From: Lachnospiraceae bacterium UBA4364
GTDB taxonomy: Bacteria > Bacillota > Clostridia > Lachnospirales > Lachnospiraceae
DNA: 64,000 nucleotides
Assembly (NCBI GenBank): GCA_002393955.1
Contig: DGSK01000003.1
Location: 18,516 to 82,515 of the forward strand
Direction of reading: 5' to 3'
Below, piece by piece: positions 1 to 30,946 of this stretch. Within the stretch, counting starts at the first letter, position 1. Each line of letters opens with the position of its first letter. Below the pieces are notes generated by a model. The model made no database searches. It worked only from the letters and a program-made list of their open reading frames with translations, and was not told where the DNA came from. The position numbers and the translations under genes are program-made.

Positions 1-1932
1 ACCCCGCTTGCAATACCTTATGAAAGAACCGATGAAAATGGTCATGGAGTATATTCTTTTTTAAGAAATCCTAAGGATAATATGCCGATGATTCCGGGAA
101 GTTCCCTTCGTGGTTGTATAAGGACGGTGTATGAAACTGTATCGGACTCGTGTCTTGTGACTGCTGATGTGGGTGGACAGTTTACGAAGCGAGCATCCAT
201 GGGCGAAGCCGGGAAGCCGGGGCTTCTGATTCGTGAGAAAAACGGATGGAAGCTATATGAAGCAGAAAGATTTCTTATCATAATTGATGATAAGGGATAT
301 AGGGAATTTAGAAGACCTGAGTTTAGTGCGGCAAAAAGGATTACAAGAAAGGAACTTGAAACATATGAGTATGGACAGAAGGTTTATTTCTGCCGTGGGA
401 ATATGTACAAAAAAAATAATTATGAGATTGGAACCGTCGTAAAATCATTTTCGCGGGACAAAAATGTGGAAAACAAGGAAGAAGGATATTTATATATTGG
501 CGAGGTTCCGTTAGCGAAAGACATAAAGACAAATAAACACTTTGAAAGCATCTTTAAAAGGAAAGAGGGAGATACAGCTTTAAATGTTGAAATAACAAAA
601 AAAGATATTGAAGGTCTTAAAACGATTGCTAGGATGTACAATGATTCGGGAATAAATAGAAATAAAATGGAGGGGGCCCGGGAATGGTATAAAGGTGTAG
701 AGGAAAAACTTAGCAGGGACGAAGAAGGAACGGTAGTGCCTTTATGGTTTAAAAGGGATGATTATACTCTTTCATTGGCTAGTATAGGAAGAATCGTTTA
801 CAAAAAAACAATGGATGATTTTGTGGATAAAAAAAGGCCATGTAAGAAACGTAACAGCTTATGTAAGGCCTGTGCCCTTTTTGGAATGAGCAAGGATGAA
901 AGTATAGGGAGCCGTGTAAGAATTACTGATGCAAAGATGCAGGATCCTGGATATAAAGGCGAAGAGGTTACTTTAAAAGAATTGGGCAGCCCGCGTACTT
1001 CCTATATTCCTTTTTATGCAACGATAAACGGAAATCCGTATACATTTATTTCTTCGTACGATGAAAAGGGTGTGAGATTACGTGGCAGGAAATTTTATTG
1101 GCATAATACACAGGAAAGGGCTTATGAGGCAGAACGTTCTCTGCCGGAAAAGGAGCGGAAAACGGAACGAAATGCCACTATGGAACTTGTTGAAAAAAAT
1201 AAGATTTTTAAATTCAAAGTCTATTTTGATGAAATAAGCAGGACTCAGTATGAGGAACTGAAATGGGCACTTACCTTGGGGGATAATCGGATTGATAGCA
1301 ATCTTTGTTACAAGATAGGGCATGGAAAACCGATCGGTCTTGGATCTGCTAAGATCGTAATTGTTAAGGAGAGCATTAGATCACTGAATCCGTATGAGAT
1401 TAAAAAAAATGATGAAATCCAGGTTGGAAATCCATTCGGAATAGATAAAGACAAAGATGAATTGCTTACGATACTGGATGTACGGTCTACGGAAGGAAAG
1501 CTGGTGTCATATCCATTTATAGTAAATAAGGGTGAGGGTAAGGAAAATGACACGGCATCCCATAAGTGGTTTTCGGACAATTGGGATATTAGGCCACGAA
1601 AAGAAAAGCTTGAGCAGGGACTTCTTTTTCCGGATAAGGCTAAGGATAAGGATAATCTTCTTAATGCGAAGATTTTTATTAGTGATGTACAAGCAAATGA
1701 CAGAAGGGAAATTTTGAAGTCTCAGAATCGTGAAAAAACAGAATATAATAAAGGTGAAATATATGAAGGAGAAGTTATTGGGTATAATAATAGCGGTAAA
1801 TTTGCACAGGTAAGGCTTAGTGGTGGTGGAAGGGCAAGTTTTTATGATGATAAACACGAATGGGATAGATGCAAAGTAAGGGTAAAGTATTTAGGGAAAA
1901 AAGATAATTATGATAAGTGGGAAAGAGTGTAA
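1..1932 (+). CDS. CRISPR-associated RAMP-superfamily protein (type III-like, Cas7/Cmr-like), 5'-truncated by the window edge, with a C-terminal S1/OB-like tail
   Basis: Frame 1 is open from nt 1, with no stop before the Met at 82, so the gene starts upstream. Motifs read directly: MIPGSSLRGCIR (RAMP signature); CKKRNSLCKACALFG zinc knuckle followed by RVRITDA; RGRKFYWH; and the G-rich loop GHGKPIGLGSAKI. The last 59 aa (GEIYEGEVIGYNNSGKFAQVRLSGGG...) fit the S1 OB-fold pattern. Confidence 0.75.
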   Translation, partial: TPLAIPYERTDENGHGVYSFLRNPKDNMPMIPGSSLRGCIRTVYETVSDSCLVTADVGGQFTKRASMGEAGKPGLLIREKNGWKLYEAERFLIIIDDKGYREFRRPEFSAAKRITRKELETYEYGQKVYFCRGNMYKKNNYEIGTVVKSFSRDKNVENKEEGYLYIGEVPLAKDIKTNKHFESIFKRKEGDTALNVEITKKDIEGLKTIARMYNDSGINRNKMEGAREWYKGVEEKLSRDEEGTVVPLWFKRDDYTLSLASIGRIVYKKTMDDFVDKKRPCKKRNSLCKACALFGMSKDESIGSRVRITDAKMQDPGYKGEEVTLKELGSPRTSYIPFYATINGNPYTFISSYDEKGVRLRGRKFYWHNTQERAYEAERSLPEKERKTERNATMELVEKNKIFKFKVYFDEISRTQYEELKWALTLGDNRIDSNLCYKIGHGKPIGLGSAKIVIVKESIRSLNPYEIKKNDEIQVGNPFGIDKDKDELLTILDVRSTEGKLVSYPFIVNKGEGKENDTASHKWFSDNWDIRPRKEKLEQGLLFPDKAKDKDNLLNAKIFISDVQANDRREILKSQNREKTEYNKGEIYEGEVIGYNNSGKFAQVRLSGGGRASFYDDKHEWDRCKVRVKYLGKKDNYDKWERV

Positions 1933-2022
1933 GACTTCAAAAAGATGAGAAAATTGGGTACTTTTAGATATTTGTCTTAATTAAAGACGAGAGTTAAATA
2001 AAGCAAGTGATGATAAATTGAG

Positions 2023-2052
2023 AAAATCGCATCGTTCTGATGCGATTTTTTA
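2023..2052 (+). terminator. Rho-independent terminator after the RAMP gene
   Basis: AAAATCGCATC-gttct-GATGCGATTTT stem-loop followed by a T-run. Confidence 0.7.
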
Positions 2053-2054
2053 TT

Positions 2055-2092
2055 TAAACAGTTAAAAAAAGTAAATGAATTATATAAGGAAG
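2055..2092 (+). promoter_or_regulatory. Promoter-like module, copy 1 (degenerate)
   Basis: AAACAGTTAAAAAAA-N-TATATAAGGAAG resembles copies 2 and 3. The downstream GAAAGGTAGCCGATAAGTTTACG aligns with the RBS and start of copy 3, but its ATG is decayed to ACG. Confidence 0.35.
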
Positions 2093-2140
2093 TGAAAGGT
2101 AGCCGATAAGTTTACGACCTTGGTAAAAAATATTTTTACA

Positions 2141-2184
2141 AAACGGTTAAAAAATAGGTTTTTGAATCTATAAGGTAATAGAAA
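2141..2184 (+). promoter_or_regulatory. Promoter-like module, copy 2 (GTTAAA-N17-TATAAG)
   Basis: AAACGGTTAAAAAATAGGTTTTTGAATCTATAAGGTAATAGAA is near-identical in its ends to copy 3. It lies upstream of the 68-aa ORF. Confidence 0.45.
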
Positions 2185-2194
2185 GGGGGGGGGG
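2185..2194. repeat. Homopolymeric G10 tract (followed by A6)
   Basis: Ten consecutive G counted at 2185-2194. The tract sits where copy 3 of the module has its AAAGGAGG ribosome-binding site. Confidence 0.9.
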
Positions 2195-2273
2195 AAAAAA
2201 CGAAAGTGAGGTGATAAGACGTAGAGAAAGAAAACCCAGTAGGCAGTGATAAAAAAGAAAAGGAGAAAATGAG

Positions 2274-2480
2274 ATGAGTAGAAAAGGAAATAGTGAACTC
2301 ACAATGGTAATACCGCAGTTAAATAAAAGGGAGGCATGTGCACTTAAAAATTCGTTGATTGAAGCAAAAAAAACTTATGCGCCTCATGCAAAGGCGAGCA
2401 TTGTAATCGGTAAAAAAGAAAATTTCAGCAAGATCGCACAAAAATGTAACCATCAATTAGATTTACAGAAAAACAGTTAA
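2274..2480 (+). CDS. Hypothetical small protein (68 aa), apparent paralogue of the 54-aa ORF at 2642
   Basis: RBS AAAGGAGAAAATGAG sits just before the ATG. It shares the pattern A..L....I.AK...AP.....IG with the 2642 ORF. Confidence 0.45.
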   Translation: MSRKGNSELTMVIPQLNKREACALKNSLIEAKKTYAPHAKASIVIGKKENFSKIAQKCNHQLDLQKNS

Positions 2481-2513
2481 AAAAAGGATACATTAGTCTA
2501 TAAGGTATAGAAC
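2471..2513 (+). promoter_or_regulatory. Promoter-like module, copy 3 (GTTAAA-N17-TATAAG)
   Basis: AAACAGTTAAAAAAAGGATACATTAGTCTATAAGGTATAGAA is followed by AAAGGAGG and the 22-codon ORF. It overlaps the stop codon of the 68-aa ORF. Confidence 0.45.
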
Positions 2514-2535
2514 GCAGAAAGGAGGTAATAAGAGT

Positions 2536-2604
2536 ATGGAAGCCAAAACAAAAACGATGATTCTGGTAGTGCTGGCAGTTATGGTTATTGTTATTTTACT
2601 CTAA
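2536..2604 (+). CDS. 22-aa hydrophobic peptide MEAKTKTMILVVLAVMVIVILL (below the ORF-track size cutoff)
   Basis: A perfect AAAGGAGG RBS lies 8 nt upstream of the ATG. The peptide has a charged N-terminus followed by a single 15-residue hydrophobic helix. Confidence 0.4.
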   Translation: MEAKTKTMILVVLAVMVIVILL

Positions 2605-2641
2605 GGGTTCGTGTAAATTTTGTAAGTGAAAGGAGAAGGTA

Positions 2642-2806
2642 ATGGGAAAATATGTACTGGTTTTTAAGGTTAAGGATGTTACAGTTAGTCAGGCAAATCG
2701 GCTTCAGGCAGAGAGTACTATAAGAGCAAAGCGAATTGCACCCGGTAGGCGCAACATAATAGGAATAGAGAACAAAGGAGGGGATAGCAAATGCAGATTA
2801 AAGTGA
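2642..2806 (+). CDS. Hypothetical small protein (54 aa)
   Basis: GAAAGGAGAAGG RBS precedes the start. The ORF was translated by hand as MGKYVLVFKVKDVTVSQANRLQAESTIRAKRIAPGRRNIIGIENKGGDSKCRLK. Its 3' end overlaps the next start by 16 nt, which suggests translational coupling. Confidence 0.45.
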   Translation: MGKYVLVFKVKDVTVSQANRLQAESTIRAKRIAPGRRNIIGIENKGGDSKCRLK

Positions 2807-3009
2807 TGAAAAAAGGCGAACAGTTTGTAGGAATTCAAGATGGTTGGATTGTTCTGAAGAGAAAGAGAGGTGATGTACGGCTGATCCGGATAGAGCAGGA
2901 TGAAGAGGGCTATCGCGTAATACCGGGGCAGGAGATTTTGATAACCTATGGAGATAATGAGGTAAGTATAGGCAATATGGACACAGAAGTGGAAATAACA
3001 AATTTTTGA
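2791..3009 (+). CDS. Hypothetical small protein (72 aa)
   Basis: RBS AAGGAGGGG lies upstream. The gene is packed tightly in the operon. I recognise no motif. Confidence 0.5.
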   Translation: MQIKVMKKGEQFVGIQDGWIVLKRKRGDVRLIRIEQDEEGYRVIPGQEILITYGDNEVSIGNMDTEVEITNF

Positions 3010-3023
3010 AGGAGGGATTACCT

Positions 3024-3392
3024 ATGAGTTTAAAATCAAGAATGTCATCAAAACAGTACGCAGAATGTCACGCAATTATTCATACAGCCAGCGCGGCGGC
3101 AGCCGGAGTGGGTACAGGATTGGCACAGATCCCACTTAGCGATACAGCAGTTATAACACCTATACAAATTGGAATGATTATGGCACTTGGAAAGGTTTTT
3201 GATTTGGAAATAACAGAGTCAATGGCAAAGGCGGGGATAGCTTCGGCTACTGCGGCCGGTTTGGGAAGGGCTGCCTCGCAGGTACTTATCGGATGGGTTC
3301 CGGGGATAGGTAATGCCATTAATGCATCGACTGCGGCTGCATTTACTGAAGGACTAGGTTGGGCTATGGTCAGTGACTTTTCAAGATATTAA
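3024..3392 (+). CDS. Gly/Ala-rich (glycine-zipper-like) membrane-associated protein, 122 aa
   Basis: The start was moved to ATG 3024, 6 nt after GAAGGAGGG. It has two long Ala/Gly-rich amphipathic or hydrophobic stretches: ASAAAAGVGTGLAQIP... and IASATAAGLGRAASQVLIGWVPGIGNAINAS. Confidence 0.55.
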   Translation: MSLKSRMSSKQYAECHAIIHTASAAAAGVGTGLAQIPLSDTAVITPIQIGMIMALGKVFDLEITESMAKAGIASATAAGLGRAASQVLIGWVPGIGNAINASTAAAFTEGLGWAMVSDFSRY

Positions 3393-3415
3393 TTTGTGTG
3401 AAGGAGGGAATTGTT

Positions 3416-3667
3416 ATGGCAAAAATCAGGTCAAATGGATTAGATAATTTCAAGGTGGATACAGGTAGATTTAGGTCTCTTACCAGGGAATCACTTAACG
3501 AAGCGGGCAAAGGGGGTGATAGTGTTAAAAATAATATGGTGCACCCATTTGGCAGTAAAGTAGGTTTTGGTTATTGTAGTTGTTGCAGGCGAAGGGTGCC
3601 GAATGTGATGCTTTTTGGTGGACCGTTTGAAAAAAGATGCAAAAAATGTATTGGAATCTATCGATAG
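3416..3667 (+). CDS. Small zinc-ribbon protein (83 aa)
   Basis: The start is ATG 3416 after GAAGGAGGG, the same RBS context as the preceding gene. Cys pairs are CSCC...CKKC. Confidence 0.55.
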   Translation: MAKIRSNGLDNFKVDTGRFRSLTRESLNEAGKGGDSVKNNMVHPFGSKVGFGYCSCCRRRVPNVMLFGGPFEKRCKKCIGIYR

Positions 3668-3678
3668 GGGGGATATGT

Positions 3679-3897
3679 ATGTCTAAAAGAAGTTCAGCTC
3701 ACACTAATGCACAGCGTCAGGGTCGTATGAGGGATTTAGGAACGTGTCAGATCTGCGGCAGCAGAAACCATCCGGAGGGGCATCATGCTATGGATTATCA
3801 GTTCGGCGGCTCGTCGAAGGTAAGCAATATCGTTACGCTGTGTCATAGCTGTCACCAAAAAGTCCATAGGGGAGAGATGGACATAAAAATACTTTAG
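3679..3897 (+). CDS. Small HNH endonuclease (72 aa)
   Basis: CQICGS...HPEGHH...N...LCHSCHQKVH matches the CxxC...HH...N...CxxCH HNH/zinc-finger layout. Confidence 0.75.
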   Translation: MSKRSSAHTNAQRQGRMRDLGTCQICGSRNHPEGHHAMDYQFGGSSKVSNIVTLCHSCHQKVHRGEMDIKIL

Positions 3898-3949
3898 GAA
3901 AAATTCACGGATATCAATTCGTGTTCTGCCGAGAGTGCGTGATGGTAAG

Positions 3950-4909
3950 TCACGCCTCCTTCAACGCTGATACCTTTTTTAAAATCTCCTCTTCATCATA
4001 TTCTGGGGCATAATCTTCCGCAATGTCACATATCATCTGAACACGGATTTCGTCTTCATCAAGATCCTCAGCTATTTGTTCTGCATCCTTACCCTTGCGG
4101 AGTTTGCGACAGACTATAGTAATTAGTTGCTTGTCCTCTCCTCGTGCCATACCTCTCTGTTCTATATAATCCAATGCTTCGCACATATTTTCAGGTTCTC
4201 CTTTCAGTTTCTTCCAATCACTATCATCGTATATTTTTGCAAATCTGCCGTCACCCGTCAACACTGACATTAACTGCAGCACTTCTCTTACATGTTTAAT
4301 TTTTTCTTTCGAGCCTGTGTAATGACCTGTACGCTGCATCTGTACAAAGTAGTCGGCTACGAAACGGAAGTCGCTCTTGAAACCTTTGAGCTGCTCGTCT
4401 GTAAGATAGGCTATCTCGTAAAGGTTTATCCGGTATTCCGGGATAAGCCTCTTAATCTTATCGTCAAGATTGTCGCCCAACGCTTCGTGAAGAGTCTTAG
4501 CCTTATCCCAATGTTTATTGTAACCAAAATACAGCACTAGCGTTATGACTGGATAACAGCTGACTGTCTTAATGCGTTTTCCTTCGGAATCTGTTTCATA
4601 TCTTATCTGATCCCTATATGCCGAACCATCATATCCTATAACACGGAGCGGCATATCATTCTCAGGTATGGTTTCGTTTTCTATTCCGAGCAGTGCGATC
4701 CTGATGTTTTTCTTTTTCCAGAATTTACTTACATCCCTTTCCAGTTCACGGAATGTTGTTTCACCATGATAGATGGAATGCGTTTTGGCGCCTTCCAGCT
4801 CGTTTTCTGCAACCCTTTGTTTCCCTTCAAAGACGAGATTGTTTACAATGTCCGCAAATACGTCATTCAGCTGTATTAGCGCCTTTTCCGTTATGTCCTT
4901 TTGACCCAT
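3950..4909 (-). CDS. Rpn-family recombination-promoting nuclease / putative transposase (PD-(D/E)xK, YhgA-like)
   Basis: This is the only convincing - strand gene. The N-terminus ...DVFADIVNNLVF...HSIYHGET..RELERDV...ALLGIENET and its ~320-aa length are typical of the family. RBS GGAGG precedes the start. Confidence 0.75.
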   Translation of the reverse strand: MGQKDITEKALIQLNDVFADIVNNLVFEGKQRVAENELEGAKTHSIYHGETTFRELERDVSKFWKKKNIRIALLGIENETIPENDMPLRVIGYDGSAYRDQIRYETDSEGKRIKTVSCYPVITLVLYFGYNKHWDKAKTLHEALGDNLDDKIKRLIPEYRINLYEIAYLTDEQLKGFKSDFRFVADYFVQMQRTGHYTGSKEKIKHVREVLQLMSVLTGDGRFAKIYDDSDWKKLKGEPENMCEALDYIEQRGMARGEDKQLITIVCRKLRKGKDAEQIAEDLDEDEIRVQMICDIAEDYAPEYDEEEILKKVSALKEA

Positions 4910-5154
4910 TATTACCTCCTTGCATGATCATTTTTGCAGGAGGTTTATAAGTATATCCCTCCCGCTTTTTTATACTTGGAATTTAAAGCACGGGAGACCC
5001 GAAGATTCTTTGAAAATAGAAATTCTTGAAATGTAATTCTTCCTTGCTTTGCGTCATATTATATCACAATCCTGTATGAAAAAACAGTGGCTAACGTCTA
5101 CGGTATAGTGGCAAAAACGGGTTCACTTAAAATAATGGACTGATTAAAATACAA

Positions 5155-5193
5155 AATTTCCCACTGTCCGGATGTGGGAAGTTTCCGCTGATT
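5155..5193. repeat. Inverted repeat AAATTTCCCAC-N9-GTGGGAAGTTT upstream of copA
   Basis: An 11-bp stem with one mismatch, read directly. The same arms occur separately at 15457-15476 and 16073-16094. Confidence 0.6.
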
Positions 5194-5273
5194 ATGGTAG
5201 AATACTCTTGCTGGTTAGCTGCGGATAACCGCAGAACGGCAAGACTATTTTCGCTAATTCATAGGAGCAGAAA

Positions 5274-7574
5274 TTGAAAGCATCTTTTAATGTGACGGGA
5301 ATGTCGTGTGCAAACTGTGTTTCCAATGTGGAAAGGGCAGTCGGTAAAATAAACGGTGTCGAGGAAGTCAGTGTCAATCTGATAGAAGAACTGATGATGG
5401 TGTCCTATGACGAATCTCTTACCGGGGAAAGCGAGATAATGGAGGCTGTAAAAAAAGCCGGTTACGGGGCGGAGAGCTGCAGCAGGCTGCAGGACCGTCC
5501 GGGTACTGCAGCCGGATCTTTGGAAAGGTCCTTTGAAAGATCCTCTAAAAAAGATAAGGATGACAAGGGAATCGGGCTGATAATATCGGTTATCCTTATG
5601 GTCATCCTTATGGTCATTGCCATGGGAGAAAAGCACAGCCTGTCCATGAATGCATTGACACAGCTATTGCTTGTGATCCCGGTCATGTTCATCAACAAAA
5701 GGTTCTATATTAATGCATTCAAGGCATTACGGTCAGGCGGCACGAATATGGATGTGCTGGTTTCCTTAAGCTCTTTGTGTGCTTTTGTTTACAGCCTGTA
5801 CGGACTGTATATGATACTTGCCTGCACCGAGAGCGGAGATATGGAATCGGCAATGCAGTACGCCCATAATCTGTTCTTTGATTCGGCTGGCATGATACTG
5901 ACTTTAGTATCCGTGGGAAAATTTCTGGAGGACAGGTCAAAGAAAAAAACAAAGGATGCCATCGACTCGCTTATCGATATCTGTCCCAAAAAGATCACTC
6001 GCATCATTACGGACAGGGATGGAAATGAGACGGAAGAAACGGTGGCTGCCGAAGATATACGGCAGGGCGACATTATCCTCATATCAAAAGGAGAGGCTTC
6101 GGCTGTTGACGGAATAGTAGTGAAAGGCAGTGCGAAATTTGATGAATCTGCAATCACCGGTGAAAGTGAAGCCATAGATAAGGCTGAGGGCGATGAGGTC
6201 ATTTCCGCCACTATGGCAATAGACGGGTATGTCAGGGTACGAGCCCAGGCGGTTGGTGAAGACTCTACACTTATGAAGATCGTCAGGATGACTAAGGAAG
6301 CTGGTGCGTCCAAGGCCCCTATTGCAAAGCTTGCAGACAGGATTTCAGCGGTGTTCGTTCCTGCTATAGTGATCATTTCCATCGTCACGTTTGCGATATG
6401 GTTCTTTGTGACGAGGAATTTTGCCACGGCCTTCTCATTTGGGATATGCGTGCTGGTAATATCCTGCCCCTGCGCCCTGGGACTTGCCACGCCTGTCGCT
6501 ATTACCGTCGGTATGGGAGTCGGTGCTAAAAACGGCATTCTTTTCAAAACAGCAGAATCGCTTCAGATGTTAAGCAGTATCGATACGGCAGTATTTGACA
6601 AGACCGGAACCATCACGAACGGTACGGTATCCGTGGAGGGAGAGGTAAGAAAAGATACCGTAAGAAAAACCTCCGCCCGGGCAATGGCAATTTTAAAAAA
6701 GCTGGGTATTGGAACAGTCATGCTCACCGGGGATAAAAAGGAGAAAGCGCTTGTCATAGCAAAGGAAGCCGGAGTTTCGGATGTAAGATATGAATTAAAG
6801 CCTGAGGACAAGGCCGGCAGTGTGAAAGAATTTCAGGAAAAAGGCAAAAAGGTTCTCGCAGTCGGCGACGGAATAAACGATGCACCGGCGCTTGCGGCCG
6901 CTGAGGTCGGGATGGCAATGGGAGCAGGAAAGGATATCGCCATAGAATGTGCAGATGTGGTCCTTATGCACAGTGACCTGCTGGATGTGGTCAGGGCCAT
7001 CAGGCTAAGCAAGGGGACTCTCCGCAACATTAAGGAAAATCTTTTCTGGGCGTTCTTTTATAATGTAGTTATGATACCTGTGGCTGCCGGGCTGGCCTAT
7101 CCAGTGTTCGGCCTTAAATTCAGTCCCATGATGGGTGCGGCATGCATGAGCCTCAGCAGTATATGTGTATGTCTGAATGCAGTAAGGCTCATGGGGATCA
7201 GACTTGATAGAGATATAGCGGCCGGTGGGAATACTGACGATTTTTCATCGGCCGGCAATAAAACAGACAGTATGCTATCATCAGATGAAGATACTGTTTG
7301 TGGTGTGAATTCTTCATCAAAAGAGTGTGAAGAGGTCGGAAAATGTAATTGTAATATAGCGAAAGGAGAAACAGAAATGATCAAATTCGGAGTAGAAGGA
7401 ATGATGTGTGCACATTGCAAGGGGCGTGTGGAGGATGCTCTCAAGGCTATTGACGGAGTAACGGGGGCAGTGGCTGACCTTGATGCAAAGTGTGTAACAA
7501 TAGAGGCCGGTGAAGGCGTGACAGAGGAAATGTGCAAAGAGGCAGTTACGGCAGCCGGCTACAAGGTGCAGTGA
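5274..7574 (+). CDS. copA: Heavy-metal (Cu+-type) P1B ATPase with N- and C-terminal HMA domains, but lacking the nucleotide-binding (N) domain
   Basis: TTG start 6 nt after AGGAG. Motifs: HMA GMSCANCV and GMMCAHCK; TGES; SCPCALGLATP; FDKTGTIT; MLTGD; GDGINDAPALA. Only ~40 residues separate DKTGT from TGD, against the ~180 usual for the family. Confidence 0.85.
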   Translation: MKASFNVTGMSCANCVSNVERAVGKINGVEEVSVNLIEELMMVSYDESLTGESEIMEAVKKAGYGAESCSRLQDRPGTAAGSLERSFERSSKKDKDDKGIGLIISVILMVILMVIAMGEKHSLSMNALTQLLLVIPVMFINKRFYINAFKALRSGGTNMDVLVSLSSLCAFVYSLYGLYMILACTESGDMESAMQYAHNLFFDSAGMILTLVSVGKFLEDRSKKKTKDAIDSLIDICPKKITRIITDRDGNETEETVAAEDIRQGDIILISKGEASAVDGIVVKGSAKFDESAITGESEAIDKAEGDEVISATMAIDGYVRVRAQAVGEDSTLMKIVRMTKEAGASKAPIAKLADRISAVFVPAIVIISIVTFAIWFFVTRNFATAFSFGICVLVISCPCALGLATPVAITVGMGVGAKNGILFKTAESLQMLSSIDTAVFDKTGTITNGTVSVEGEVRKDTVRKTSARAMAILKKLGIGTVMLTGDKKEKALVIAKEAGVSDVRYELKPEDKAGSVKEFQEKGKKVLAVGDGINDAPALAAAEVGMAMGAGKDIAIECADVVLMHSDLLDVVRAIRLSKGTLRNIKENLFWAFFYNVVMIPVAAGLAYPVFGLKFSPMMGAACMSLSSICVCLNAVRLMGIRLDRDIAAGGNTDDFSSAGNKTDSMLSSDEDTVCGVNSSSKECEEVGKCNCNIAKGETEMIKFGVEGMMCAHCKGRVEDALKAIDGVTGAVADLDAKCVTIEAGEGVTEEMCKEAVTAAGYKVQ

Positions 7575-22456: not shown

Positions 22457-25400
22457 ATGGATTTCAAAGAGAAAGAAAAAAAGGAAAATAAAGCGATCAA
22501 CGCCCAGAATGAGCAGAAAAACGAGCAGCAGAATGTAGCTAATCAGCCTATTCAGCAGAATCCTGTAAATCAGGCTCAGCCTATCCAGCAGCAGAATAAT
22601 AAAGATGCTAAAAAAGAGAAGGATAAGAAGAAAAGCAAGAAGAAGGATGCCAAGGCTGTTGAACGGGCAGAGGAAGAGGTAATCCCTGAGGTTAAAGCGG
22701 ATTCCATGGAGGCTGCTGAGGGTGAATACATGGACTTCCTGCTTAAGCAGAAAGGCTTCCAGAATACCAGCTATAAAGACAAGAAGTTCAGTGTGAGCAA
22801 CAAGCCCGATCTTCTCCGCGTCAATAGCTTTATGAATAATCAGCTTCATGAAGAAAATTATCTGGATGTAAGCTGGTCTCTTACCAAGAAGGAATTACAG
22901 ATGATCCGGGATAAGAGGAACAAGTGCTGGTTCTTTGCGGATTCAAGAGCTAATAAGCTTGAGAAGAAACTTAAGAAGAATCGAAATTTCCAGATTGCAG
23001 CAGGTATGTTTGCACAGCACAGAGAGATTCTTGAAACTGCAGCAAAGGAGCTTAAGAGCGGCAAGGAGTCAGAGTTTGAAAAGTTTGGTATGCGTTCATC
23101 AAAGGAAATGTATGCCGAAATGACAGAGCTTCTTAAGCAGACATATGTTAAGAGCCAGGGAAAGGCAGCTGTAAAGGGATTCTTTGGCTGGAAGCCTGAT
23201 AGTGAAGTCAATATGGCATATGTTGCAAAGCAGGCTACAATGAGTAATATTTTCTGTGAAAATAAGCTCAAGGAATTTGCAAATCTCAATATTGTAGCAA
23301 ACCGTGAAATAGATAAGACAGTCCAGGCCAGGATGCTGTCTTACTGTAAGCTCGGTTATAACAGCAACATGGTCCTGTATGAGTGCATGGAGAATAAAGG
23401 ACACAAGATGACTGCCAAGCTTAAGGAAGATGCAAAGAGAAGAGCAAGCCAATTTGAGATGATGCAGTTCTTTGTGGAAAATGCGCATAAGCCTGAATTT
23501 TTTGAGGCAGGAATAGTTACATGGGGTCAGATGTTCAAGGAGGCCAGTGAAGCGGCTGACTATGCAGGCGCCGGCAATATGGCTAAGGGCGAAAAGAATG
23601 CATATTATAACGCTCTCCTTAGCGGTATTCTTACCAACAAGATCCGTCAGGCTAAGATGAAGCTTAACGGCTGGTATGAGCTTAAGGATAAGACTGCAGA
23701 GGATGCCCAGATAGAAAATGCAGCTAAACAGGGCGAGAAGAAGGAAGAGAAGAAAGAAGAGAAAAAAGAAGAGAAGAACGTAGAAGGTAAGCAGGAAGAG
23801 AAGAAAGAAGAAAAGAAAGAAGAGGGCAAGAAGGACGAAAAGAAAGCCGAGAAAAAGAAGAAAGGGAAAGAGAAGCCCGATCCTTTCGGAAGAACCAAGG
23901 AACAGATAGCTTTCGATGCTGAGCTGTCTAGGGCTCATAATAAGCTTATTGGATATGGTGAGGAAAGACAGAAGCAGCAGGATGCGATGAAGAAGCAGGA
24001 GACATCCGTATGGAAAGCTGTATGGGGCTGCTGCAATACAATGAGCGAAAGCGTGGACGATGACACAAAGCTTGCTGATGAAAGATGGATAAGGGGTGTT
24101 ACTCACAATGATATCGATCTTATGAAGGATCGTCTTGATGATATAAATAATACTGTTACTAATTTTGTATTCTCAGATGAGATGATGACTGATCCTGAAA
24201 GTTATCTCAGGGGCAACCTGAAGGAATACCTGAAGCTTCGCGGATATTTCACAGCATACGAGAAGTTAAGTGACTTAAGCATGTTTGGAGAGACTAAAAA
24301 GTACTCTGCAATAGATAATTATTTCTCTCAGGCAAGAGGAAAGTACCTGTGGGTATTTGGCGACCAGCAGACCAGGGCGATCGACAAGAACCGTATTGCA
24401 CCCTGGAAGGCTTTCCAGGCATTTGCCGACAGGCTCCTTAAGCAGAAAGGGATCAATCCTGACAATACCGGCTTGGTAAGCGGTTATGCTACATTTGATC
24501 AGTGGAAAGATGCCCAGTTCAAGAATGAAGATGAAAAGAAGAAAGAGCTGGATAAGGTAGTAAAAACTATCAAGGAAAAGAATGCACTGATCCTGAAGGA
24601 TCAGTTCAGGATGAATTATGCCTATGTTTTCGGCTTTGAGGATGAAAAGGGCAATATTGATATAGGCTTTGAGAGGAAGATCAGAGAGGCATTCGGCAAG
24701 GATGTTACAAGCGTTGATGATACCCTGAAAACTCTCAGGGAGATGAAGCCTAATCTTCAGGGCGCTATCGAAAATATGGCGGGAATGCTTGAGTACATGA
24801 CCAAATATCCGGTTGAGGAGTTCCCGGCTATGTACAAGGGGCTGGATGTTTTTGACAGCAAGAAGGAAACCGCAGCATCCCTGATGAGGAAGCTTGAGGT
24901 TTGGAAGCTGAGATACGGCTCATATACAACCTTCATAGATAAGTATGACGCTGGTGACAAAAATGCGAAAAAGCTTGTTGAAGAAGGTATAGCAGAAAAG
25001 ATTGACTGCCAGGAGCTGCTTAAGAGAGCTGAGGAAACCGCAATTGCTGAAAATGCAGTAAAGGGCGGTGACTATAAGACCTTCCGCGGTGTTAACCGTA
25101 TGAGGGAGTATGTAGATACATTTAAGGAATATGGCTATCATAAGGACTATGCTACCGCAACGAAATTTGTGGCAGACTTTAAGTTCACTAAAGAATGGGA
25201 TAAGCCGGATTTTGTATATGCAAATATCGAGACATACTCACGCCTGATACTCAGTATCGATACGATAGAGAATTTTGGCAAAGAGGTTGTTGAAGAATCC
25301 ACACCTGCATACAAGAATAAGCTTTTATCGACTATTGAATTCTTTAAGGCTTACAGACGGCACATGAACCATCAGCTGGTACAGAAGTATAAGATCAATC

Positions 25401-28400
25401 CCGAACAGATGGCTTATGCTACGGATGAGATGGTTGAGAAGGCCAAGGCTTATCTGGCACCTGATCAGAAGAAGGAGCCTGAGCATAAGCGCTTTAAGAA
25501 TATCAGAAATGCATTTGGTTTAAAGTGCTGGCAGGAAGATCATGCTGAGGATGGCTTTAAGATGTCTGACTATGTATATGACAAGAAGCTCATAGAGTTC
25601 GGACGTCAGGAGCTTCAGCGTAAGGACTATGAGGCCAAGATACTTGAGGGCAAGGCAGAGTATATAGATTACCTGCGCCTGCTCGTAATCAAGACCAGAC
25701 AGCTTAATGCTAAGAATCTTCCGGAGAAGCAGAAGGAAGTATTCAAGGGTCAGATTAAGAACCTTGCATACAGGGCGTATACATGCATGGCAAACGAAAA
25801 GTTCAGCAGGCCCAGAAATGCCATTAAGTCGAGTGACAATGAAATAACCAATACGGTACTCATGGACTATATGTACAGGGATGAGCTTAAAGATGATGTG
25901 GACTATCTTGGAATCCTTGAAAAGGCATATAAGAGCGAGCTGACGAACAAGTGGCAGGGTGATGTTGAGAGACAGAATAAGCAGCAGGAATCCGCTACGA
26001 ATTATCATAATAGCCTTGGCATGAAACGCGAAAGAGAAAGCTCTAAGTTTGTAGACCGCAAGGAGGCAGAGCTTATAAGCATTGATGCGGATCTCAGGGC
26101 AAAGCTTGTAAAAGAACTGGAAAAAGAAATTGAAAAGCCTGAGAACGCTGAAGCAAAGGCAAAGTTTGAAGAAATAATTGCGGACATTAAGGCGGATAAT
26201 GATCATGGTCGGTTTGCAATATTTGTAATGTGCAATACTAAGGACAAGTTTATTAAAAAGTATGGCGCAGGACTGTCAGAAAAGACAAAGGATCTGATCA
26301 GAAAAGTACATGTTTCCTCGTATTATGCAGGTCAGCTCCAGTTTGATCCGGATGAAGTCAGGTCTGCGGATCAGAAGATTGAAGATCTGTGCAAGGCATT
26401 TTCGACTTTTGAGCAGATTGATAAAGTCAGAGAAATGGAAAAGAGCGGAAAAGACAAGACTGACTTTGAGGAGTATAACAGGCAGAAAGAAAAGCTTACA
26501 TTCATGTCTGATGTTGAAGATGATATGAACATGGCTAATAGACAGATTTCCGAGTCATCGCTTCCTACATATTACAAGCTGTGTAATGATGCGGATATTC
26601 TCAGTAACTTTGTAAACGAGCATTCATTTGTAAATGCTGAAGCAGAGGAATCCTTAAGGAAGCGTATTGCATCACTGGAGGAAGTAAATGCGGTAGCAAA
26701 CAGAAAGGAGAGGCTTGCTGTTTCAAAGTCAGCTAAGGATCTTGTCTTTGCACTGTCGAGAAAGGGACAGTTTAAGGATGGAAACAGCCTGAGCTTTGCA
26801 ATTGATAATCTCCTTCGTTTCAGAGGTGTTACACTGACACAGTCGACCATCGAGAACTGGAAGCCCGGCGTGGGTAATCTGCAGAAGCTTGATGATAAGC
26901 GTATGGCTGACCTGGATAAGATGGCTGAGAGACTGGCAAAGGGTGATGTTGAGATGGGCGACTATGCAGGAATGATCACCAAAGTAATGCCTGATGTGGT
27001 TATCCGTCAGAAGAAATTCGCCAGCAATAAGCTCACAGATGAGAATATCAACAACTTTAAGACCACTGTCATTGATGCACTGACAAAGGATAAGACACCC
27101 GTTGCCCTTAAGATGAACGGAAAGTATTATACTGTCACAAGTTATGATGAAAAGACCGGAGAAGTTAAGGTTGAATATCAGAATGAGGCGGCAAGGTCAA
27201 TAAAGCTTGAAGCTCTTTTCAACGAGGCTTCAATGAAAGCACCTGAGAATGCAACAGCTGAGGAGAAAAAGAAATACAACACCGGCATAGAGGTGACATG
27301 GCTTAAGGATATCCAGTTTGCTGAGGATACGATTGTGCACCTTAAGGATTATGAGGGCGGCAAAGATGGAGTGGGCGCTCATAAGAAGGGTGATATAGAA
27401 GAAAACTATAAGATATTCAGTGAAGAAGAAAAGGCAAAGTACCGTAAACTGGATCCGTCAAGCAATAAAATGTTTGCCTTGGAGGATCTTGTGCACAACA
27501 GCTTATTTGATCCGATATCCACAAAGGTAATAAAGGATGCTTCAGGTAATTTCATATACTTTGACAACGATGGCAAGGCTGTCATAAAGGACGATAAGCT
27601 TGCGAAGTATGGAAAGAATATACCTATGGACGCACTTTGCATAAAGGAACAGGGCCAGGATGATGTTGAGAGTGACATTACAATATATCCTGAAACCTAT
27701 GCCGAGACTACAAAGGTTAAGAGCAAAGATATAAGCAGGCTGAATGAGTATCTCTACAAGGACAATAAGTCAAAGGTTATTTATGAAGCTTCTGCATTAG
27801 CGCTTCAGGCACAGAGACAGTCTGTACCTCAGATTATTGAGAATCTGAAGCTGGAAGCTGTACAGAGAACCTTTATAGCTGCTCAGATGGAGGTAGACCG
27901 CTTAAAGGATGATAAGAAGAAGATCAGCGATACAGAGGGCTTTGATCTGACCTGCAATATGGTAAATACAGGTAAGGAGTATGATAAATACGAATCCACA
28001 AGGAAGCAGATGGATGAGTCTGCCAAGAATGCCAAGAATTCAAGAAAGCCTGCAATTACCGAAATTCCCAAGGTTAAACAGGAAGCTCTTGACTATGGCG
28101 AGAAATTCAAAATTGCATTAGAGGAAGGAAAAATTGAATATGCAGCGACCCTTTATTCCCTTGCTTTAAACAGGATCAATTCCCTTAATCAGGTGATGGG
28201 CTTCAAGGAAAGATGGAATTTCTCAGACCGTATTTCAAAGAAGATCATGGATAAGCTCTACAAGCAGAAATATGACGTGGTACGCAAAAATTACATTGAT
28301 GCAGCAGATAAGCTTGGTGAATATGATGCAAAGATGGCAAAAATCGACAAAAAGGTCGGCAAGCTGGAAGCTAATAATGTCAAAGGTGTAGCATACAAGT

Positions 28401-30946
28401 ATACTGTTCAGGATCTTCCGGAAATATTCAGAGTTACTGATGATCCGGCTATCATCAAAGCGCTGCTCAAGAGCAAGGTGCCTCTGCTGTCCGAGTCCAG
28501 GAAGGAACTTGAAAACCGTCTTGCTGCAATAAAGAAGATCAACGGAAGCAAGACGAGAGATGAATTCAGCGCAGATGTAAAATCTACGGTAGAGACAAGG
28601 GTAGAAGCTACCAAGCAGGCAAGTTCAAAGAACAGGAAGCTTCTGAATACTGCATCAGAGACAGACTTAAAGATCTGTGTTGAGATCAATAATATAAATA
28701 ATAGTCTGGATGCATTGAAAAAAGAAGTGTCCGTTAAGGAGGCTATTCTCAACGGTAAAGATAAGAAAGCTAAAAAGACCGTAGACAAGAAAGCTCTTGC
28801 AAAGCAGAAAAAACAGATTGAAGAACTGACAAAAGAACGTGATGCTAAGAGGGAAGAGCGGAAGGGACTGAATGAGGAGCTGGCAAATATTCCTGAAAAT
28901 GAAAAGAAAAACGTTATTGAATATAAGCTGCAGTATGATTTAAGCAAGCTGAAGAAGAAGCATGTGGCTAAACTGAATGGAGTGGCAGACACTGCAGGAA
29001 CGATGCTCATGCTGGTTACCGGAAAAGAAGTGGATTCAGAGCTGCTTTCCGCATACAGACCTGCTATGGATATCACAAAGGAAATGGATGATGATTGTAT
29101 CAAGTATCGTCAGGCGCTTTCAAACGGAAGATTAAACAGTCTGGGTGATTATGCAGATCTTACAAACAGCATACTTAATAATACCTGCCTGCAGCAGTAT
29201 GAATTTGATGTAAGGGAGCTCAGGGACAAGAAACGCGGAAATGAGGCAAAGATGCAGCTGCTTGCAAAGGTGAAGCAGTACATTACCCTTTCAATGCAGA
29301 ACTCCAAATCACCTATAGCTATCCAGAATCCCGGCGGAGGGTACAAGCTGATCGTCGGCTTTACAGACAAAGGTGATGTAATGGAAGACAAGGTGAAGTT
29401 TGTGGACATTGGTGAGGGTGGTCATCTCTACGAGTCGGATATGTACCTGGAAGACCTTACTGCCGGAATTAATATTAAGGGGACAGGTGACACCATATCA
29501 ATGTTTGCTTTCAACGATATAGAAAAGGGTAAAAACCTCCTTCCCTCTAACGGTAGTATCAAATATGATGCGAAGACCGGAGAAATCGCAAAAGTATCAG
29601 GCAATGAGGAAGGCAGTGCTCACCGCAGCCATACAGTGGAATTCTGCAACACTCAGGTCGAGGGATTAAAGATCAGGTCATTCTTCCCTAACACCATAAA
29701 AGGTGATAAGGGTGCAGAAGAGAGCCTTGAGAAGGTACCTGTTTCCGATCCTGAGGCAATAGAGGCACTTCTTATCAACAGGAAGGAAACTCCTGAGGAG
29801 AAGCGTGCGGATGAAGCAGCTCTTATGAGCAGCATCAGGCATTTTGCAGAAGGTGGAAGCAAGATGGAGATAAGAGATCTTCCTGATAACTACCGCCTGA
29901 CAGGCAATCTCGAAAAACTGAATTACCTTATCTCTCATCACTCAGACGCCTTTTCTGCTGAAGCGATCAAGGAGCTTAGGGATAGAAGGGATGCTATTGA
30001 AGAAATCAATATGCTTAAGTCCCAGTATAAGTACACGACTACCAAGACAAAGGAGAAACAGCTTGAGGGAGACATACATGAGGTAAGGCTTAACATAAAG
30101 TATGACGGATCAAATTCGAAAACCGCCGGAAGCTGGTCTGATGCCATGAGTTTCCTGCTCTCCTCAAGAGGACTTAAAGTGCCTGCCGAGCTGCTTTCAA
30201 AATGCAACCCGGATGTCAACTATCATATAAAGGTTAACACCAAGGACAGGTTTGAAAATGATCCTAAGAGAGACATGAAGAACTTAGAGAATCACGTAGA
30301 TATACTGGCAAGGGTAATGCAGGATGTAAGCCTGGAAGTTGCTGAATATGACATTGACAAGAATGTGGAAGAAGAGGATACTATCAGAGAAATCAAGAGT
30401 TATATTCTTGGGAGGATGCAGGAAGATGGAAGCTCCGTTGTACTGAAAATGCCTGAAGATGCCGAAATGTACCGTAATATCGTTGGTGTAAGAGGGGATT
30501 CACTGATAATCAGATCATCTGTTGGAATGGATTATGAAGATGTATATCAGGGCAATACTTACACGGACGAGTATATTGAAAAGACATTCGGCGGACAGTC
30601 TCTGGAGTATGAGATGCCTATAAGCGAACTGGCAGGAAAAAAGTTCTCATTAATGTCACTGTCAAAATCTTATGATGAAAAGAGTATGACAAATAAGCGC
30701 GGCGCTATGGTAACGCTGTCAAAAGCAATGTGCAAGCAGGATAAGTATAATGACGGTGCGATAGGTCAGATGAGAATGCATCACAAAGATAGTGCTCCTC
30801 AGGAACTCCAGATAGGTGGAAAAAAGACCGGTATCAAAGTAAAGACTGAAAGCTGGATATCCAGGCAGTACATAGTAGATCATTTTGATGACGCTGATGA
30901 TATGATGGATGTCGAAAAAAAGAAAGCAAAAAAGAGTGAGAAATAA
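22457..30946 (+). CDS. Giant (2829 aa) Lys/Glu-rich hydrophilic protein of unknown function
   Basis: An uninterrupted 8.5-kb ORF with RBS ACGGAGGA. The N-terminus is Q/N/K-rich and looks disordered. By eye I find no signal peptide, no TM segment, no Walker A and no HExxH. Confidence 0.85.
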   Translation: MDFKEKEKKENKAINAQNEQKNEQQNVANQPIQQNPVNQAQPIQQQNNKDAKKEKDKKKSKKKDAKAVERAEEEVIPEVKADSMEAAEGEYMDFLLKQKGFQNTSYKDKKFSVSNKPDLLRVNSFMNNQLHEENYLDVSWSLTKKELQMIRDKRNKCWFFADSRANKLEKKLKKNRNFQIAAGMFAQHREILETAAKELKSGKESEFEKFGMRSSKEMYAEMTELLKQTYVKSQGKAAVKGFFGWKPDSEVNMAYVAKQATMSNIFCENKLKEFANLNIVANREIDKTVQARMLSYCKLGYNSNMVLYECMENKGHKMTAKLKEDAKRRASQFEMMQFFVENAHKPEFFEAGIVTWGQMFKEASEAADYAGAGNMAKGEKNAYYNALLSGILTNKIRQAKMKLNGWYELKDKTAEDAQIENAAKQGEKKEEKKEEKKEEKNVEGKQEEKKEEKKEEGKKDEKKAEKKKKGKEKPDPFGRTKEQIAFDAELSRAHNKLIGYGEERQKQQDAMKKQETSVWKAVWGCCNTMSESVDDDTKLADERWIRGVTHNDIDLMKDRLDDINNTVTNFVFSDEMMTDPESYLRGNLKEYLKLRGYFTAYEKLSDLSMFGETKKYSAIDNYFSQARGKYLWVFGDQQTRAIDKNRIAPWKAFQAFADRLLKQKGINPDNTGLVSGYATFDQWKDAQFKNEDEKKKELDKVVKTIKEKNALILKDQFRMNYAYVFGFEDEKGNIDIGFERKIREAFGKDVTSVDDTLKTLREMKPNLQGAIENMAGMLEYMTKYPVEEFPAMYKGLDVFDSKKETAASLMRKLEVWKLRYGSYTTFIDKYDAGDKNAKKLVEEGIAEKIDCQELLKRAEETAIAENAVKGGDYKTFRGVNRMREYVDTFKEYGYHKDYATATKFVADFKFTKEWDKPDFVYANIETYSRLILSIDTIENFGKEVVEESTPAYKNKLLSTIEFFKAYRRHMNHQLVQKYKINPEQMAYATDEMVEKAKAYLAPDQKKEPEHKRFKNIRNAFGLKCWQEDHAEDGFKMSDYVYDKKLIEFGRQELQRKDYEAKILEGKAEYIDYLRLLVIKTRQLNAKNLPEKQKEVFKGQIKNLAYRAYTCMANEKFSRPRNAIKSSDNEITNTVLMDYMYRDELKDDVDYLGILEKAYKSELTNKWQGDVERQNKQQESATNYHNSLGMKRERESSKFVDRKEAELISIDADLRAKLVKELEKEIEKPENAEAKAKFEEIIADIKADNDHGRFAIFVMCNTKDKFIKKYGAGLSEKTKDLIRKVHVSSYYAGQLQFDPDEVRSADQKIEDLCKAFSTFEQIDKVREMEKSGKDKTDFEEYNRQKEKLTFMSDVEDDMNMANRQISESSLPTYYKLCNDADILSNFVNEHSFVNAEAEESLRKRIASLEEVNAVANRKERLAVSKSAKDLVFALSRKGQFKDGNSLSFAIDNLLRFRGVTLTQSTIENWKPGVGNLQKLDDKRMADLDKMAERLAKGDVEMGDYAGMITKVMPDVVIRQKKFASNKLTDENINNFKTTVIDALTKDKTPVALKMNGKYYTVTSYDEKTGEVKVEYQNEAARSIKLEALFNEASMKAPENATAEEKKKYNTGIEVTWLKDIQFAEDTIVHLKDYEGGKDGVGAHKKGDIEENYKIFSEEEKAKYRKLDPSSNKMFALEDLVHNSLFDPISTKVIKDASGNFIYFDNDGKAVIKDDKLAKYGKNIPMDALCIKEQGQDDVESDITIYPETYAETTKVKSKDISRLNEYLYKDNKSKVIYEASALALQAQRQSVPQIIENLKLEAVQRTFIAAQMEVDRLKDDKKKISDTEGFDLTCNMVNTGKEYDKYESTRKQMDESAKNAKNSRKPAITEIPKVKQEALDYGEKFKIALEEGKIEYAATLYSLALNRINSLNQVMGFKERWNFSDRISKKIMDKLYKQKYDVVRKNYIDAADKLGEYDAKMAKIDKKVGKLEANNVKGVAYKYTVQDLPEIFRVTDDPAIIKALLKSKVPLLSESRKELENRLAAIKKINGSKTRDEFSADVKSTVETRVEATKQASSKNRKLLNTASETDLKICVEINNINNSLDALKKEVSVKEAILNGKDKKAKKTVDKKALAKQKKQIEELTKERDAKREERKGLNEELANIPENEKKNVIEYKLQYDLSKLKKKHVAKLNGVADTAGTMLMLVTGKEVDSELLSAYRPAMDITKEMDDDCIKYRQALSNGRLNSLGDYADLTNSILNNTCLQQYEFDVRELRDKKRGNEAKMQLLAKVKQYITLSMQNSKSPIAIQNPGGGYKLIVGFTDKGDVMEDKVKFVDIGEGGHLYESDMYLEDLTAGINIKGTGDTISMFAFNDIEKGKNLLPSNGSIKYDAKTGEIAKVSGNEEGSAHRSHTVEFCNTQVEGLKIRSFFPNTIKGDKGAEESLEKVPVSDPEAIEALLINRKETPEEKRADEAALMSSIRHFAEGGSKMEIRDLPDNYRLTGNLEKLNYLISHHSDAFSAEAIKELRDRRDAIEEINMLKSQYKYTTTKTKEKQLEGDIHEVRLNIKYDGSNSKTAGSWSDAMSFLLSSRGLKVPAELLSKCNPDVNYHIKVNTKDRFENDPKRDMKNLENHVDILARVMQDVSLEVAEYDIDKNVEEEDTIREIKSYILGRMQEDGSSVVLKMPEDAEMYRNIVGVRGDSLIIRSSVGMDYEDVYQGNTYTDEYIEKTFGGQSLEYEMPISELAGKKFSLMSLSKSYDEKSMTNKRGAMVTLSKAMCKQDKYNDGAIGQMRMHHKDSAPQELQIGGKKTGIKVKTESWISRQYIVDHFDDADDMMDVEKKKAKKSEK
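23733..23877 (+). repeat. ~145-nt near-pure polypurine (GAA/GAG/AAG) tract encoding an (E/K)-repeat
   Basis: The DNA reads gagaagaaggaagagaagaaagaagagaaaaaagaagagaag... and encodes GEKKEEKKEEKKEEKNVEGKQEEKKEEKKEEGKKDEKKAEKKKKGKEK. Confidence 0.9.

Follow-up and report, generated by a model that had tools for sequence, protein, structure and literature searches.

Type III CRISPR-Cas loci gather ancillary effectors, and those described are large proteins with sensor domains; CreTA-type modules guard CRISPR loci, and WYL regulators such as BrxR, CapW, PafBC and DriD are the basis for supposing that control of this type may be linked to infection or DNA damage. The stretch of Lachnospiraceae bacterium UBA4364 analysed here (contig DGSK01000003.1, positions 18,516 to 82,515; 64,000 nucleotides (nt), called the window, the loci of relatives compared with it being given L-numbers) carries seven small genes directly behind the last large gene of a type III-D operon. 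They form a compact, horizontally mobile small-gene cassette of defence islands. Its conserved core consists of the related proteins g68 and g54 (one or two copies), of g72 and of a minimal HNH nuclease, with g122, g83 and g22 as accessory genes. The cassette differs from the described effectors in that its proteins have 50-120 residues, two of the families are unannotated and the only recognisable enzyme is the 72-residue HNH protein. No description of such a cassette was found in the literature on DUF697, on HNH-linked HlpB or on WYL-linked glycine zippers. From its gene content and its neighbourhoods we tentatively infer that it may be an inducible nuclease-based defence or addiction module.

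The conserved core and its accessory genes

All seven open reading frames (ORFs) had been proposed in a first-pass annotation made from the letters of the sequence, and all were found where it had placed them, with strong Shine-Dalgarno sites of the AGGAGG type, intergenic gaps of 11-23 nt and an overlap of 16 nt between the g54 and g72 frames; the smallest ORFs were called from conservation and ribosome-binding sites alone. Six of the seven genes are conserved in related loci and four (g68, g54, g72 and g122) are under strong purifying selection (ratio of nonsynonymous to synonymous substitution rates, dN/dS, 0.02-0.16), which bears out their annotation as genes. The features of the locus are the following.

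82..1932, plus strand: Cas7-like RAMP gene, the last large one of the type III-D operon (PADLOC Cas7_IIId, E 6.4e-99; TIGR03986, 212 bits)
2023..2051, plus strand: terminator-like hairpin of the intrinsic type with a T run (RNA fold -16 kcal/mol, z -4.5)
2056..2099, plus strand: module copy 1 (exact 13-mer match; comparison with L099)
2141..2194, plus strand: module copy 2, with a run of ten G (G10, 2185-2194) at its end (alignment of window, L099 and L097; ten-copy alignment)
2274..2480, plus strand: g68, core, basic protein of 68 residues with an invariant A-P motif (dN/dS, alignment of 9 homologues, hhalign)
2471..2529, plus strand: module copy 3, overlapping the g68 stop codon (repeat search, 13-mer count, ten-copy alignment)
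2536..2604, plus strand: g22, tentative hydrophobic mini-protein of 22 residues (conservation in L099)
2642..2806, plus strand: g54, core, basic protein of 54 residues, paralogue of g68 (dN/dS, alignment, hhalign)
2791..3009, plus strand: g72, acidic all-beta protein of 72 residues, marker gene of the core (dN/dS, AlphaFold2)
3024..3392, plus strand: g122, accessory, DUF697-like four-helix protein rich in small residues (homologues, profile, AlphaFold2)
3416..3667, plus strand: g83, accessory, zinc ribbon of 83 residues, CxCC...CxxC (window and L099)
3679..3897, plus strand: predicted HNH endonuclease, core, minimal, 72 residues (PF01844)
3898..3958, no strand: two hairpins between the convergent HNH and Rpn-like genes (RNA fold -21.8 kcal/mol, z -3.2), likely a bidirectional terminator region, overlapping the 3' end of the Rpn-like gene
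3950..4909, minus strand: YhgA/Rpn-like PD-(D/E)xK gene, convergent to the cassette (PF04754, 21.9 bits, borderline at a cut-off of 21)

The adjoining Cas7-like RAMP gene, already recognised as a CRISPR RAMP gene in the first pass and now assigned to type III-D, is cut by the window start and encodes an S1-like tail at the C-terminus.

The dN/dS values were obtained against L097 and L099 (76-93% amino-acid identity) and, for g122, against L099 only (99%). They are 0.03-0.07 for g68, 0.09-0.16 for g54, 0.08 for g72 and 0.02 for g122, and in the more distant loci every reading frame remains open. The g68 and g54 families are paralogous, as had been suspected from shared residues (hhalign probability 93.9%, E 1.5e-7, 46 columns), and the A-P motif, seen for g68 in an alignment of 9 homologues, is invariant in both; a word-indexed homologue search with g68 returned two close relatives only. 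The Photobacterium relative of g68 has an N-terminal CCHC knuckle and the L109 relative of g54 a cysteine-rich extension, zinc motifs which hint that these proteins may bind nucleic acids.

The g72 family is rare: a set of 5.8 billion proteins contains 8 clusters of it, and one of 1.84 billion contains 58 representatives. Its members are mostly stand-alone proteins of 57-107 residues, a few reaching up to 183. The AlphaFold2 model of g72 is all beta (predicted local distance difference test, pLDDT, 81). No Pfam or PDB relative was found, the PDB sequence search giving only a non-significant match to eIF5A, and a comparison of 18 g72 homologues with Pfam yielded no recurrent family. The HNH protein matches PF01844 with 34.5 bits (cut-off 21.4), and the residues CxxC, GHH, N, CxxCH and H do not vary among 8 cassette orthologues, so that the nuclease is predicted to be catalytically intact; among solved structures the HNH domains of IscB are nearest to it. 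The core genes are translationally coupled, g54 overlapping g72 in the window and g68 overlapping or abutting the HNH gene in L105, L107 and L109. Scans of the seven proteins against Pfam, PHROGs, NCBIfam and PADLOC gave the HNH protein and a weak DUF697 match only, and a comparison with cas and PADLOC profiles a generic HNH only.

Of the last three products, read in the first pass as a glycine-zipper-like protein, a zinc ribbon and an HNH nuclease, the second and third have stood, while g122 is instead a DUF697-like four-helix protein. Its AlphaFold2 model consists of four long helices (pLDDT 80.6), and the PDB sequence search returned nothing. The g122 family aligns with DUF697 (PF05128) and a Sel1-fused relative scores above the cut-off of 27.7 bits (28.1 bits), but the window protein stays below it (17.1 bits). 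We know of no function for DUF697, so the match explains nothing on the mechanism. The family includes 475 proteins in a word-indexed search and 177 genome loci across phyla (Clostridia, Synergistota, Treponema, Methylococcaceae, Acidobacteriota and others), and 32 columns are invariant among 32 aligned sequences. The g122-type domain is also found C-terminally in proteins of 766-897 residues with 9-13 Sel1 repeats (L021 3943-6636, L036 4054-6354).

The partners of g122 vary and include a 66-residue double zinc ribbon, Xre-type regulators, a GIY-YIG nuclease (11 loci) and WYL regulators (8 loci). The GIY-YIG nuclease, of 97 residues, replaces the HNH protein in a sister cassette (L008 6129-9201 and 10 further g122 loci), which in L008 comprises a divergent gene for the same WYL regulator, two 63-residue glycine-zipper genes, a g122 homologue and two small genes. 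As a gene defining the system g122 was rejected, since most of 80 g122 loci are without the other genes and several core cassettes are without g122. The zinc ribbon g83 is present only in the window and L099 and is 100% identical there, so that selection has no independent test; other zinc-ribbon ORFs adjoin g122 homologues, one in L106 and the 66-residue double ribbon in 12 loci.

The mini-protein g22 has 73% identity in L099 (dN/dS 0.47, on very few sites) and is shorter in L097. In L103, L105 and L113 comparable places are taken by hydrophobic mini-ORFs of 24-36 residues that are unrelated to it and have strong ribosome-binding sites. Just upstream of the g54-g72-g68-HNH core of L105 (9295-9845) a 217-nt unit is repeated 2.5 times with 93% matches and encodes alternating hydrophobic mini-ORFs of 25 and 36 residues, each with an AGGAGG site.

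Small proteins of membrane type (g122, glycine-zipper proteins, hydrophobic peptides of 22-36 residues) are variable around the core. They might suggest a membrane-active peptide cassette, that is leaderless bacteriocins, modulin-like peptides or a lysis- or holin-like set, with the rest serving for immunity or regulation. The tandem hydrophobic or glycine-zipper genes with strong ribosome-binding sites in L103 and L045 (two each) and in the L105 repeat would fit such a set, as would g22 in the window and the many small residues of g122. We nevertheless regard it as very unlikely, as the invariant core is made of soluble proteins and the HNH nuclease, and as the cassette has neither an exporter nor a leader peptidase, endolysin or known immunity gene and was not found in phages. 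The search for signs of a phage lysis cassette gave no endolysin and no PHROG match except the HNH protein, and the flanks are chromosomal; toxin and antitoxin families were likewise without a match, in agreement with the first-pass impression of no resemblance to either kind of module.

Genomic contexts of the core

The core was followed into 12 informative contexts, on the longest available contigs and mostly in rumen or gut Clostridia.

Window: cassette right after the last III-D Cas7 gene
L064: RAMP, Csx1 (CARF-HEPN), two unknown genes, cassette, CRISPR array
L045: RAMP, Cas6, Csx1-like gene, array, cassette, array
L106: cassette between array segments
L109-L111: III-D effector genes, cassette, Csm6, Cas1, Cas2, reverse transcriptase (RT)-primase fusion
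L112: MJ1673, Cas6, MJ1674, cassette, Csm6, Cas1, Cas2, RT
L097, L099, L103, L105: divergent WYL regulator (four contexts)
L113-L116: resolvase (serine recombinase) context between proS and aroA
L117 (8460-9753), Photobacterium leiognathi: trio among integrase fragments, with a Phd antitoxin downstream

Type III CRISPR-Cas loci contain the core in six of the 12, with shuffled gene order and variable accessories, and in three of these six, whose III-D operons have diverged deeply, the position of the cassette is the same. Between the window and L109 the last RAMP proteins are no more than 27% identical over the whole length, and the cassette follows the same gene in both; in L112 the same slot is kept and the effector genes are absent. 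A linkage to CRISPR and defence islands, with a strong excess of type III loci, is supported by these contexts, and the earlier suggestion of an uncharacterised CRISPR-linked or defence island agrees with the conserved partners found here. In the other six no cas gene or array is present on the contig, and the association is not near-exclusive.

A specific association with this RAMP family or with Rpn, which had also been considered, did not hold, the core being found elsewhere beside WYL regulators, a resolvase, or integrase fragments and an antitoxin. The Rpn-like gene does lie convergent and just downstream as annotated, in the same position also in L099, although its identity as Rpn is borderline; Rpn-like genes are near only some loci, among them a fragment beside the WYL gene of L103, and a specific Rpn link was rejected. 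Arrays were detected in 3 (L045, L051, L075) of the 80 genome loci of the g122 family, and the L064 array, though bordering the cassette, was missed by the detector with its three-repeat threshold.

Two further observations concern junctions. The 2.4-kb metagenome contig L106 (1-2428) has the order array-cassette-array and its last 126 nt are those of nt 13-138, two spacers included; a circular molecule, a tandem duplication or an assembly looped through CRISPR repeats could each account for this. In L109 (8096-8669) the translated sequence that separates the cassette from the last III-D RAMP gene resembles, to the eye, the C-terminus of an IS66-type transposase, in which case this junction has been an insertion site.

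The III-D operon upstream of the cassette can be read in L001 (same organism, sheep rumen metagenome) as an MJ1674-like gene, Cas10, Cas7, Cas7, Csx19 and the Cas7 gene of the window. The MJ1674-like protein carries a HEPN-like RNVFAHN motif. The Cas10 protein (L001 1-2897) has 533 residues, with the palm motifs DGNNMG and SAGDE and without an HD domain. Such a Cas10 could point to a dedicated type III ancillary module, in which the cassette would supply a DNase for HD-less III-D systems or process nucleic acids for RT-Cas1-Cas2. The fixed slot after the last Cas7 gene in III-D operons of such low identity speaks for this, and so do the slot between MJ1674 and Csm6-Cas1-Cas2-RT in L112 and the adjacent Csx1 or Csm6 genes in L064, L045, L109 and L112. 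However, half of the contexts lack cas genes and arrays on the contig, scans with Pfam, NCBIfam and PADLOC gave no CARF, SAVED or other cyclic-oligoadenylate sensor domain, and L112 retains the cassette without effector genes, and an ancillary role of this kind appears unlikely to us. The most novel proposal is that the g68/g54-g72-HNH core is a hitherto unrecognised partner of HD-less III-D and Csx1-type systems, a tiny nuclease complex which would supply the cutting of DNA or RNA or the prespacer processing of which the minimal Cas10 is incapable, the stand-alone copies under WYL control being its free-living form; this we hold to be distinctly improbable.

The divergent WYL regulator of four contexts is present also in L008. 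The L099 regulator is above the Pfam cut-off for WCX, those of L099 and L105 match the PADLOC CRISPR-associated WYL profile (E 1e-14 to 1e-16), and the regulators of L097 and L103 are homologous to them (phmmer E 1e-163 and 3e-112). Neighbours in these islands resemble defence genes: in L105 a HamB-like helicase fused to a PD-T4-6-type kinase and, in L097, an ATPase whose matches to AAA and HEPN_Swt1 are weak and do not reach the Pfam cut-offs.

In Photobacterium leiognathi the core is present as a trio, made up of a g72-like protein (78 residues), a g68-like protein (94 residues, with the CCHC knuckle) and an HNH protein (75 residues). About 410 nt upstream of this trio a LexA-box-like sequence, CTGTATGTTTATCCAG, was read by eye.

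Searches of 2.9 million viral contigs (IMG/VR) and of 50,697 GenBank phage records gave no relative of either g72 or g122. Among 72,556 plasmids (PLSDB) g72 had none, and g122 matched only seven very large replicons. Scattering in prophage or plasmid backbones without conserved partners had been named in the first pass as a refuting outcome; the homologues do have conserved partners. The same searches bear on the suggestion, likewise made there, of an anti-CRISPR or anti-defence island, which a mobile element would have left. Small unannotated proteins adjoining cas genes, with a regulator gene nearby in relatives, would fit such an island, but g72 is missing from the viral, phage and plasmid collections and g122 from phages, the position in host CRISPR loci is stable across deep divergence, and an intact nuclease is atypical for an anti-CRISPR protein. 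This reading found no support and we consider it extremely improbable.

The promoter module and the history of the locus

The first-pass annotation had noticed a promoter and ribosome-binding module occurring three times. The 13-mer AAACNGTTAAAAA is indeed found exactly at 2056, 2141 and 2471 and at no other site of the window; tolerating one mismatch gives 4 matches where 0.44 would be expected, and none of 100 shuffles reaches 4. A repeat search recovered the same three copies (76% identity over 38 nt between those at 2140 and 2470). Copy 3 has the layout GTTAAAAA, 13 nt, TCTATAAG, followed by GAAAGGAGG, and the alignment of ten copies from four loci (window, L099, L097 and L064) gives the consensus GTTAAAAA, 12-13 nt, TCTATA(A/T) (TCTATAAG), about 8-10 nt and GAAAGG(AGG) (GAAAGGAGG), the first element being invariant in all ten.

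This geometry is sigma-70-like (TTAAAA, 16-17 nt, TATAAG), with the ribosome-binding site directly after, and fits a lineage-specific promoter of weak sigma-70-type consensus with a very short leader and a Shine-Dalgarno site, to judge from the aligned copies. A simple scan for sigma-70 promoters and terminators listed none of the module copies, nor the hairpin at 2023-2051; the module is missed because its -10 hexamer ends in G. A role of the TCTAT...ATAGA palindrome in RNA structure was rejected, as it folds with only -2.3 to -2.6 kcal/mol (z near 0), and it is more likely a DNA-level -10 or operator element.

The history of the three copies becomes clear by comparison with L099, a locus of the same species-level background in which the Rpn and copA genes likewise lie downstream. 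There the module precedes three units: a gene for a 122-residue membrane protein (L099 2526-2894), the 69-residue glycine-zipper gene with g68 after it, and the genes that begin with g22-g54-g72. A WYL/WCX regulator gene lies on the opposite strand between units one and two, and GTTAC-N7-GTAAC palindromes were read by eye in the intergenic region by the WYL gene of relatives. Window positions 2017-2107, with the terminator and copy 1, correspond at 75% to L099 2383-2465, in front of the membrane-protein gene, and the hairpin at 2023-2051 recurs before a module copy in L099 (2383-2420). Copy 2 corresponds to the promoter of the glycine-zipper gene in L099, relatives having mini-ORFs and the 69-residue glycine-zipper gene after it, and copy 3 is at the orthologous position in L099 and L097.

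By this alignment the deletions in the window map to the WYL regulator, the 122-residue membrane-protein gene and the 69-residue glycine-zipper gene, all of which it has lost. As the genes between were deleted, copy 1 would be an orphan promoter and copy 2 a retained one, likely now the promoter of g68, and copy 3 is predicted to be an internal promoter with its Shine-Dalgarno site. The module would accordingly mark at least two transcription units, one from copy 2 with g68 and one from copy 3 with g22 through HNH, in place of the single seven-gene operon first proposed. The triplication itself and the G10 run at the end of copy 2 were thus annotated correctly, but the view of copies 1 and 2 as decayed duplicates of copy 3 was rejected, since each drives its own gene in relatives. 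At the place of the G10 run relatives have GGAGG or a run of six G, and its length could vary through slippage.

The comparison of window 2261-7533 with L099 4622-9979 revealed a mosaic. From position 3023 on (g122, g83, HNH, Rpn and copA) the window is 94.4% identical to L099, whereas identity is 79.4% over 2261-3015 (g68 to g72); synonymous divergence (dS) is 0.4-1.4 for the genes g68 to g72 versus 0.02-0.16 for the downstream genes. The upstream alleles are wholly different, III-D cas genes in the window and an HD-AAA_28 protein, a membrane protein and the WYL regulator in L099. Two alleles at one chromosomal site indicate an exchange, with the right-hand crossover between g72 and g122. The segment that came in comprised the III-D genes and the left half of a cassette, which makes the linkage to III-D older than this genome.

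On another reading the cassette is purely selfish, an addiction module of the toxin-antitoxin kind or an HNH element of the homing type, which would gather in CRISPR loci, integron-like arrays and islands as recombination hot spots without benefit for the host. The breakpoint inside the cassette and the translationally coupled pairs (g54/g72, and g68/HNH in L105, L107 and L109) are consistent with this, as are the resolvase context and the Photobacterium island with its integrase fragments and Phd antitoxin. In a published Treponema integron amplicon, the only related mention met with in the literature, an HNH gene lies next to a DUF697 gene (PMC9137128). On the other side, known toxin-antitoxin families gave no match, the WYL control and the defence-type neighbours suit a defence role at least equally well, and neither target-site duplications nor ends of an element were found. 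We judge pure selfishness unlikely, though it overlaps with the explanation preferred here, as addiction and defence are not exclusive.

The remainder of the window is ordinary clostridial chromosome. Among its genes are a heavy-metal P-type ATPase gene ("copA", with HMA and E1-E2 ATPase domains) and an acyl-carrier-protein gene followed by genes of the fatty-acid-synthesis type. A Clostridiales-1 small RNA at 49291-49457 (Rfam RF01699, 128.6 bits) confirms the clostridial host, and two very large ORFs lie on the plus strand at 22457-30946 (2829 residues) and 31067-35980 (1637 residues).

Possible function and comparison with known systems

If the cassette is an inducible nuclease-based defence or addiction module, the HNH nuclease would be its effector or toxin and the co-translated small partners would restrain or direct it, while the membrane proteins could add an optional second damaging activity. 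Where relatives have retained the WYL repressor, phage infection or DNA damage would turn the operon on. As a module of the abortive-infection or addiction type it would ride with type III CRISPR-Cas loci, which it may stabilise or back up.

Several observations weigh against this proposal. In profile scans the small partners matched no known antitoxin, immunity, sensor or defence family, and in Foldseek searches of the PDB the AlphaFold2 models of g122 and g72 gave no match with E below 0.4. The WYL regulator is missing from the window and from all CRISPR-embedded copies, in which only neutralisation by its partners would keep a toxic module in check. The promoter module departs from a strong sigma-70 consensus and is absent from the simple promoter scan, and window 1900-4000 had no contig in three rumen metatranscriptome runs of the same samples. 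The 12 contexts are a small sample, drawn mostly from Clostridia of rumen and gut. We consider a defence or addiction role possible at this stage, and more likely than each of the rival readings.

What the locus adds is a defence-island or CRISPR-linked nuclease cassette built of unannotated families, which occurs also in free form with a CRISPR-type WYL regulator, and in an island of a gammaproteobacterium. As a defence or addiction module it would bring a very small nuclease system into the defence repertoire. It would also help to explain how CRISPR loci are kept and exchanged, because recombination within the cassette sets two alleles of this locus apart. Were it a direct partner of III-D, the missing nuclease of HD-less Cas10 proteins would be named.

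Besides the DUF697 proteins, three groups of described systems come closest. Like the ancillary genes of type III loci (Csm6/Csx1, Csx19), the cassette recurs beside Csx1 or Csm6 and arrays in deeply diverged loci; it differs from them in having no CARF, SAVED or sensor domain and far smaller proteins, and in lying outside CRISPR in about half of its contexts. With toxin-antitoxin and abortive-infection modules that have a nuclease toxin, and with CreTA-type modules, it shares tiny, coupled, mobile genes and a potentially toxic nuclease, together with an occurrence in integron-like arrays, islands and cas loci, but it is a trio or quartet of proteins and neither a pair nor an RNA pair, and no similarity to known toxin or antitoxin families was found. 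The WYL-controlled defence operons (BrxR/CapW and the CRISPR-associated WYL type) resemble the copies of the relatives, whose divergent WYL/WCX protein of 329-360 residues, with inverted repeats upstream, precedes a nuclease-containing operon in defence-type surroundings; the cassette differs from these operons in its new gene families and in the absence of the regulator from the window and all CRISPR-embedded copies.

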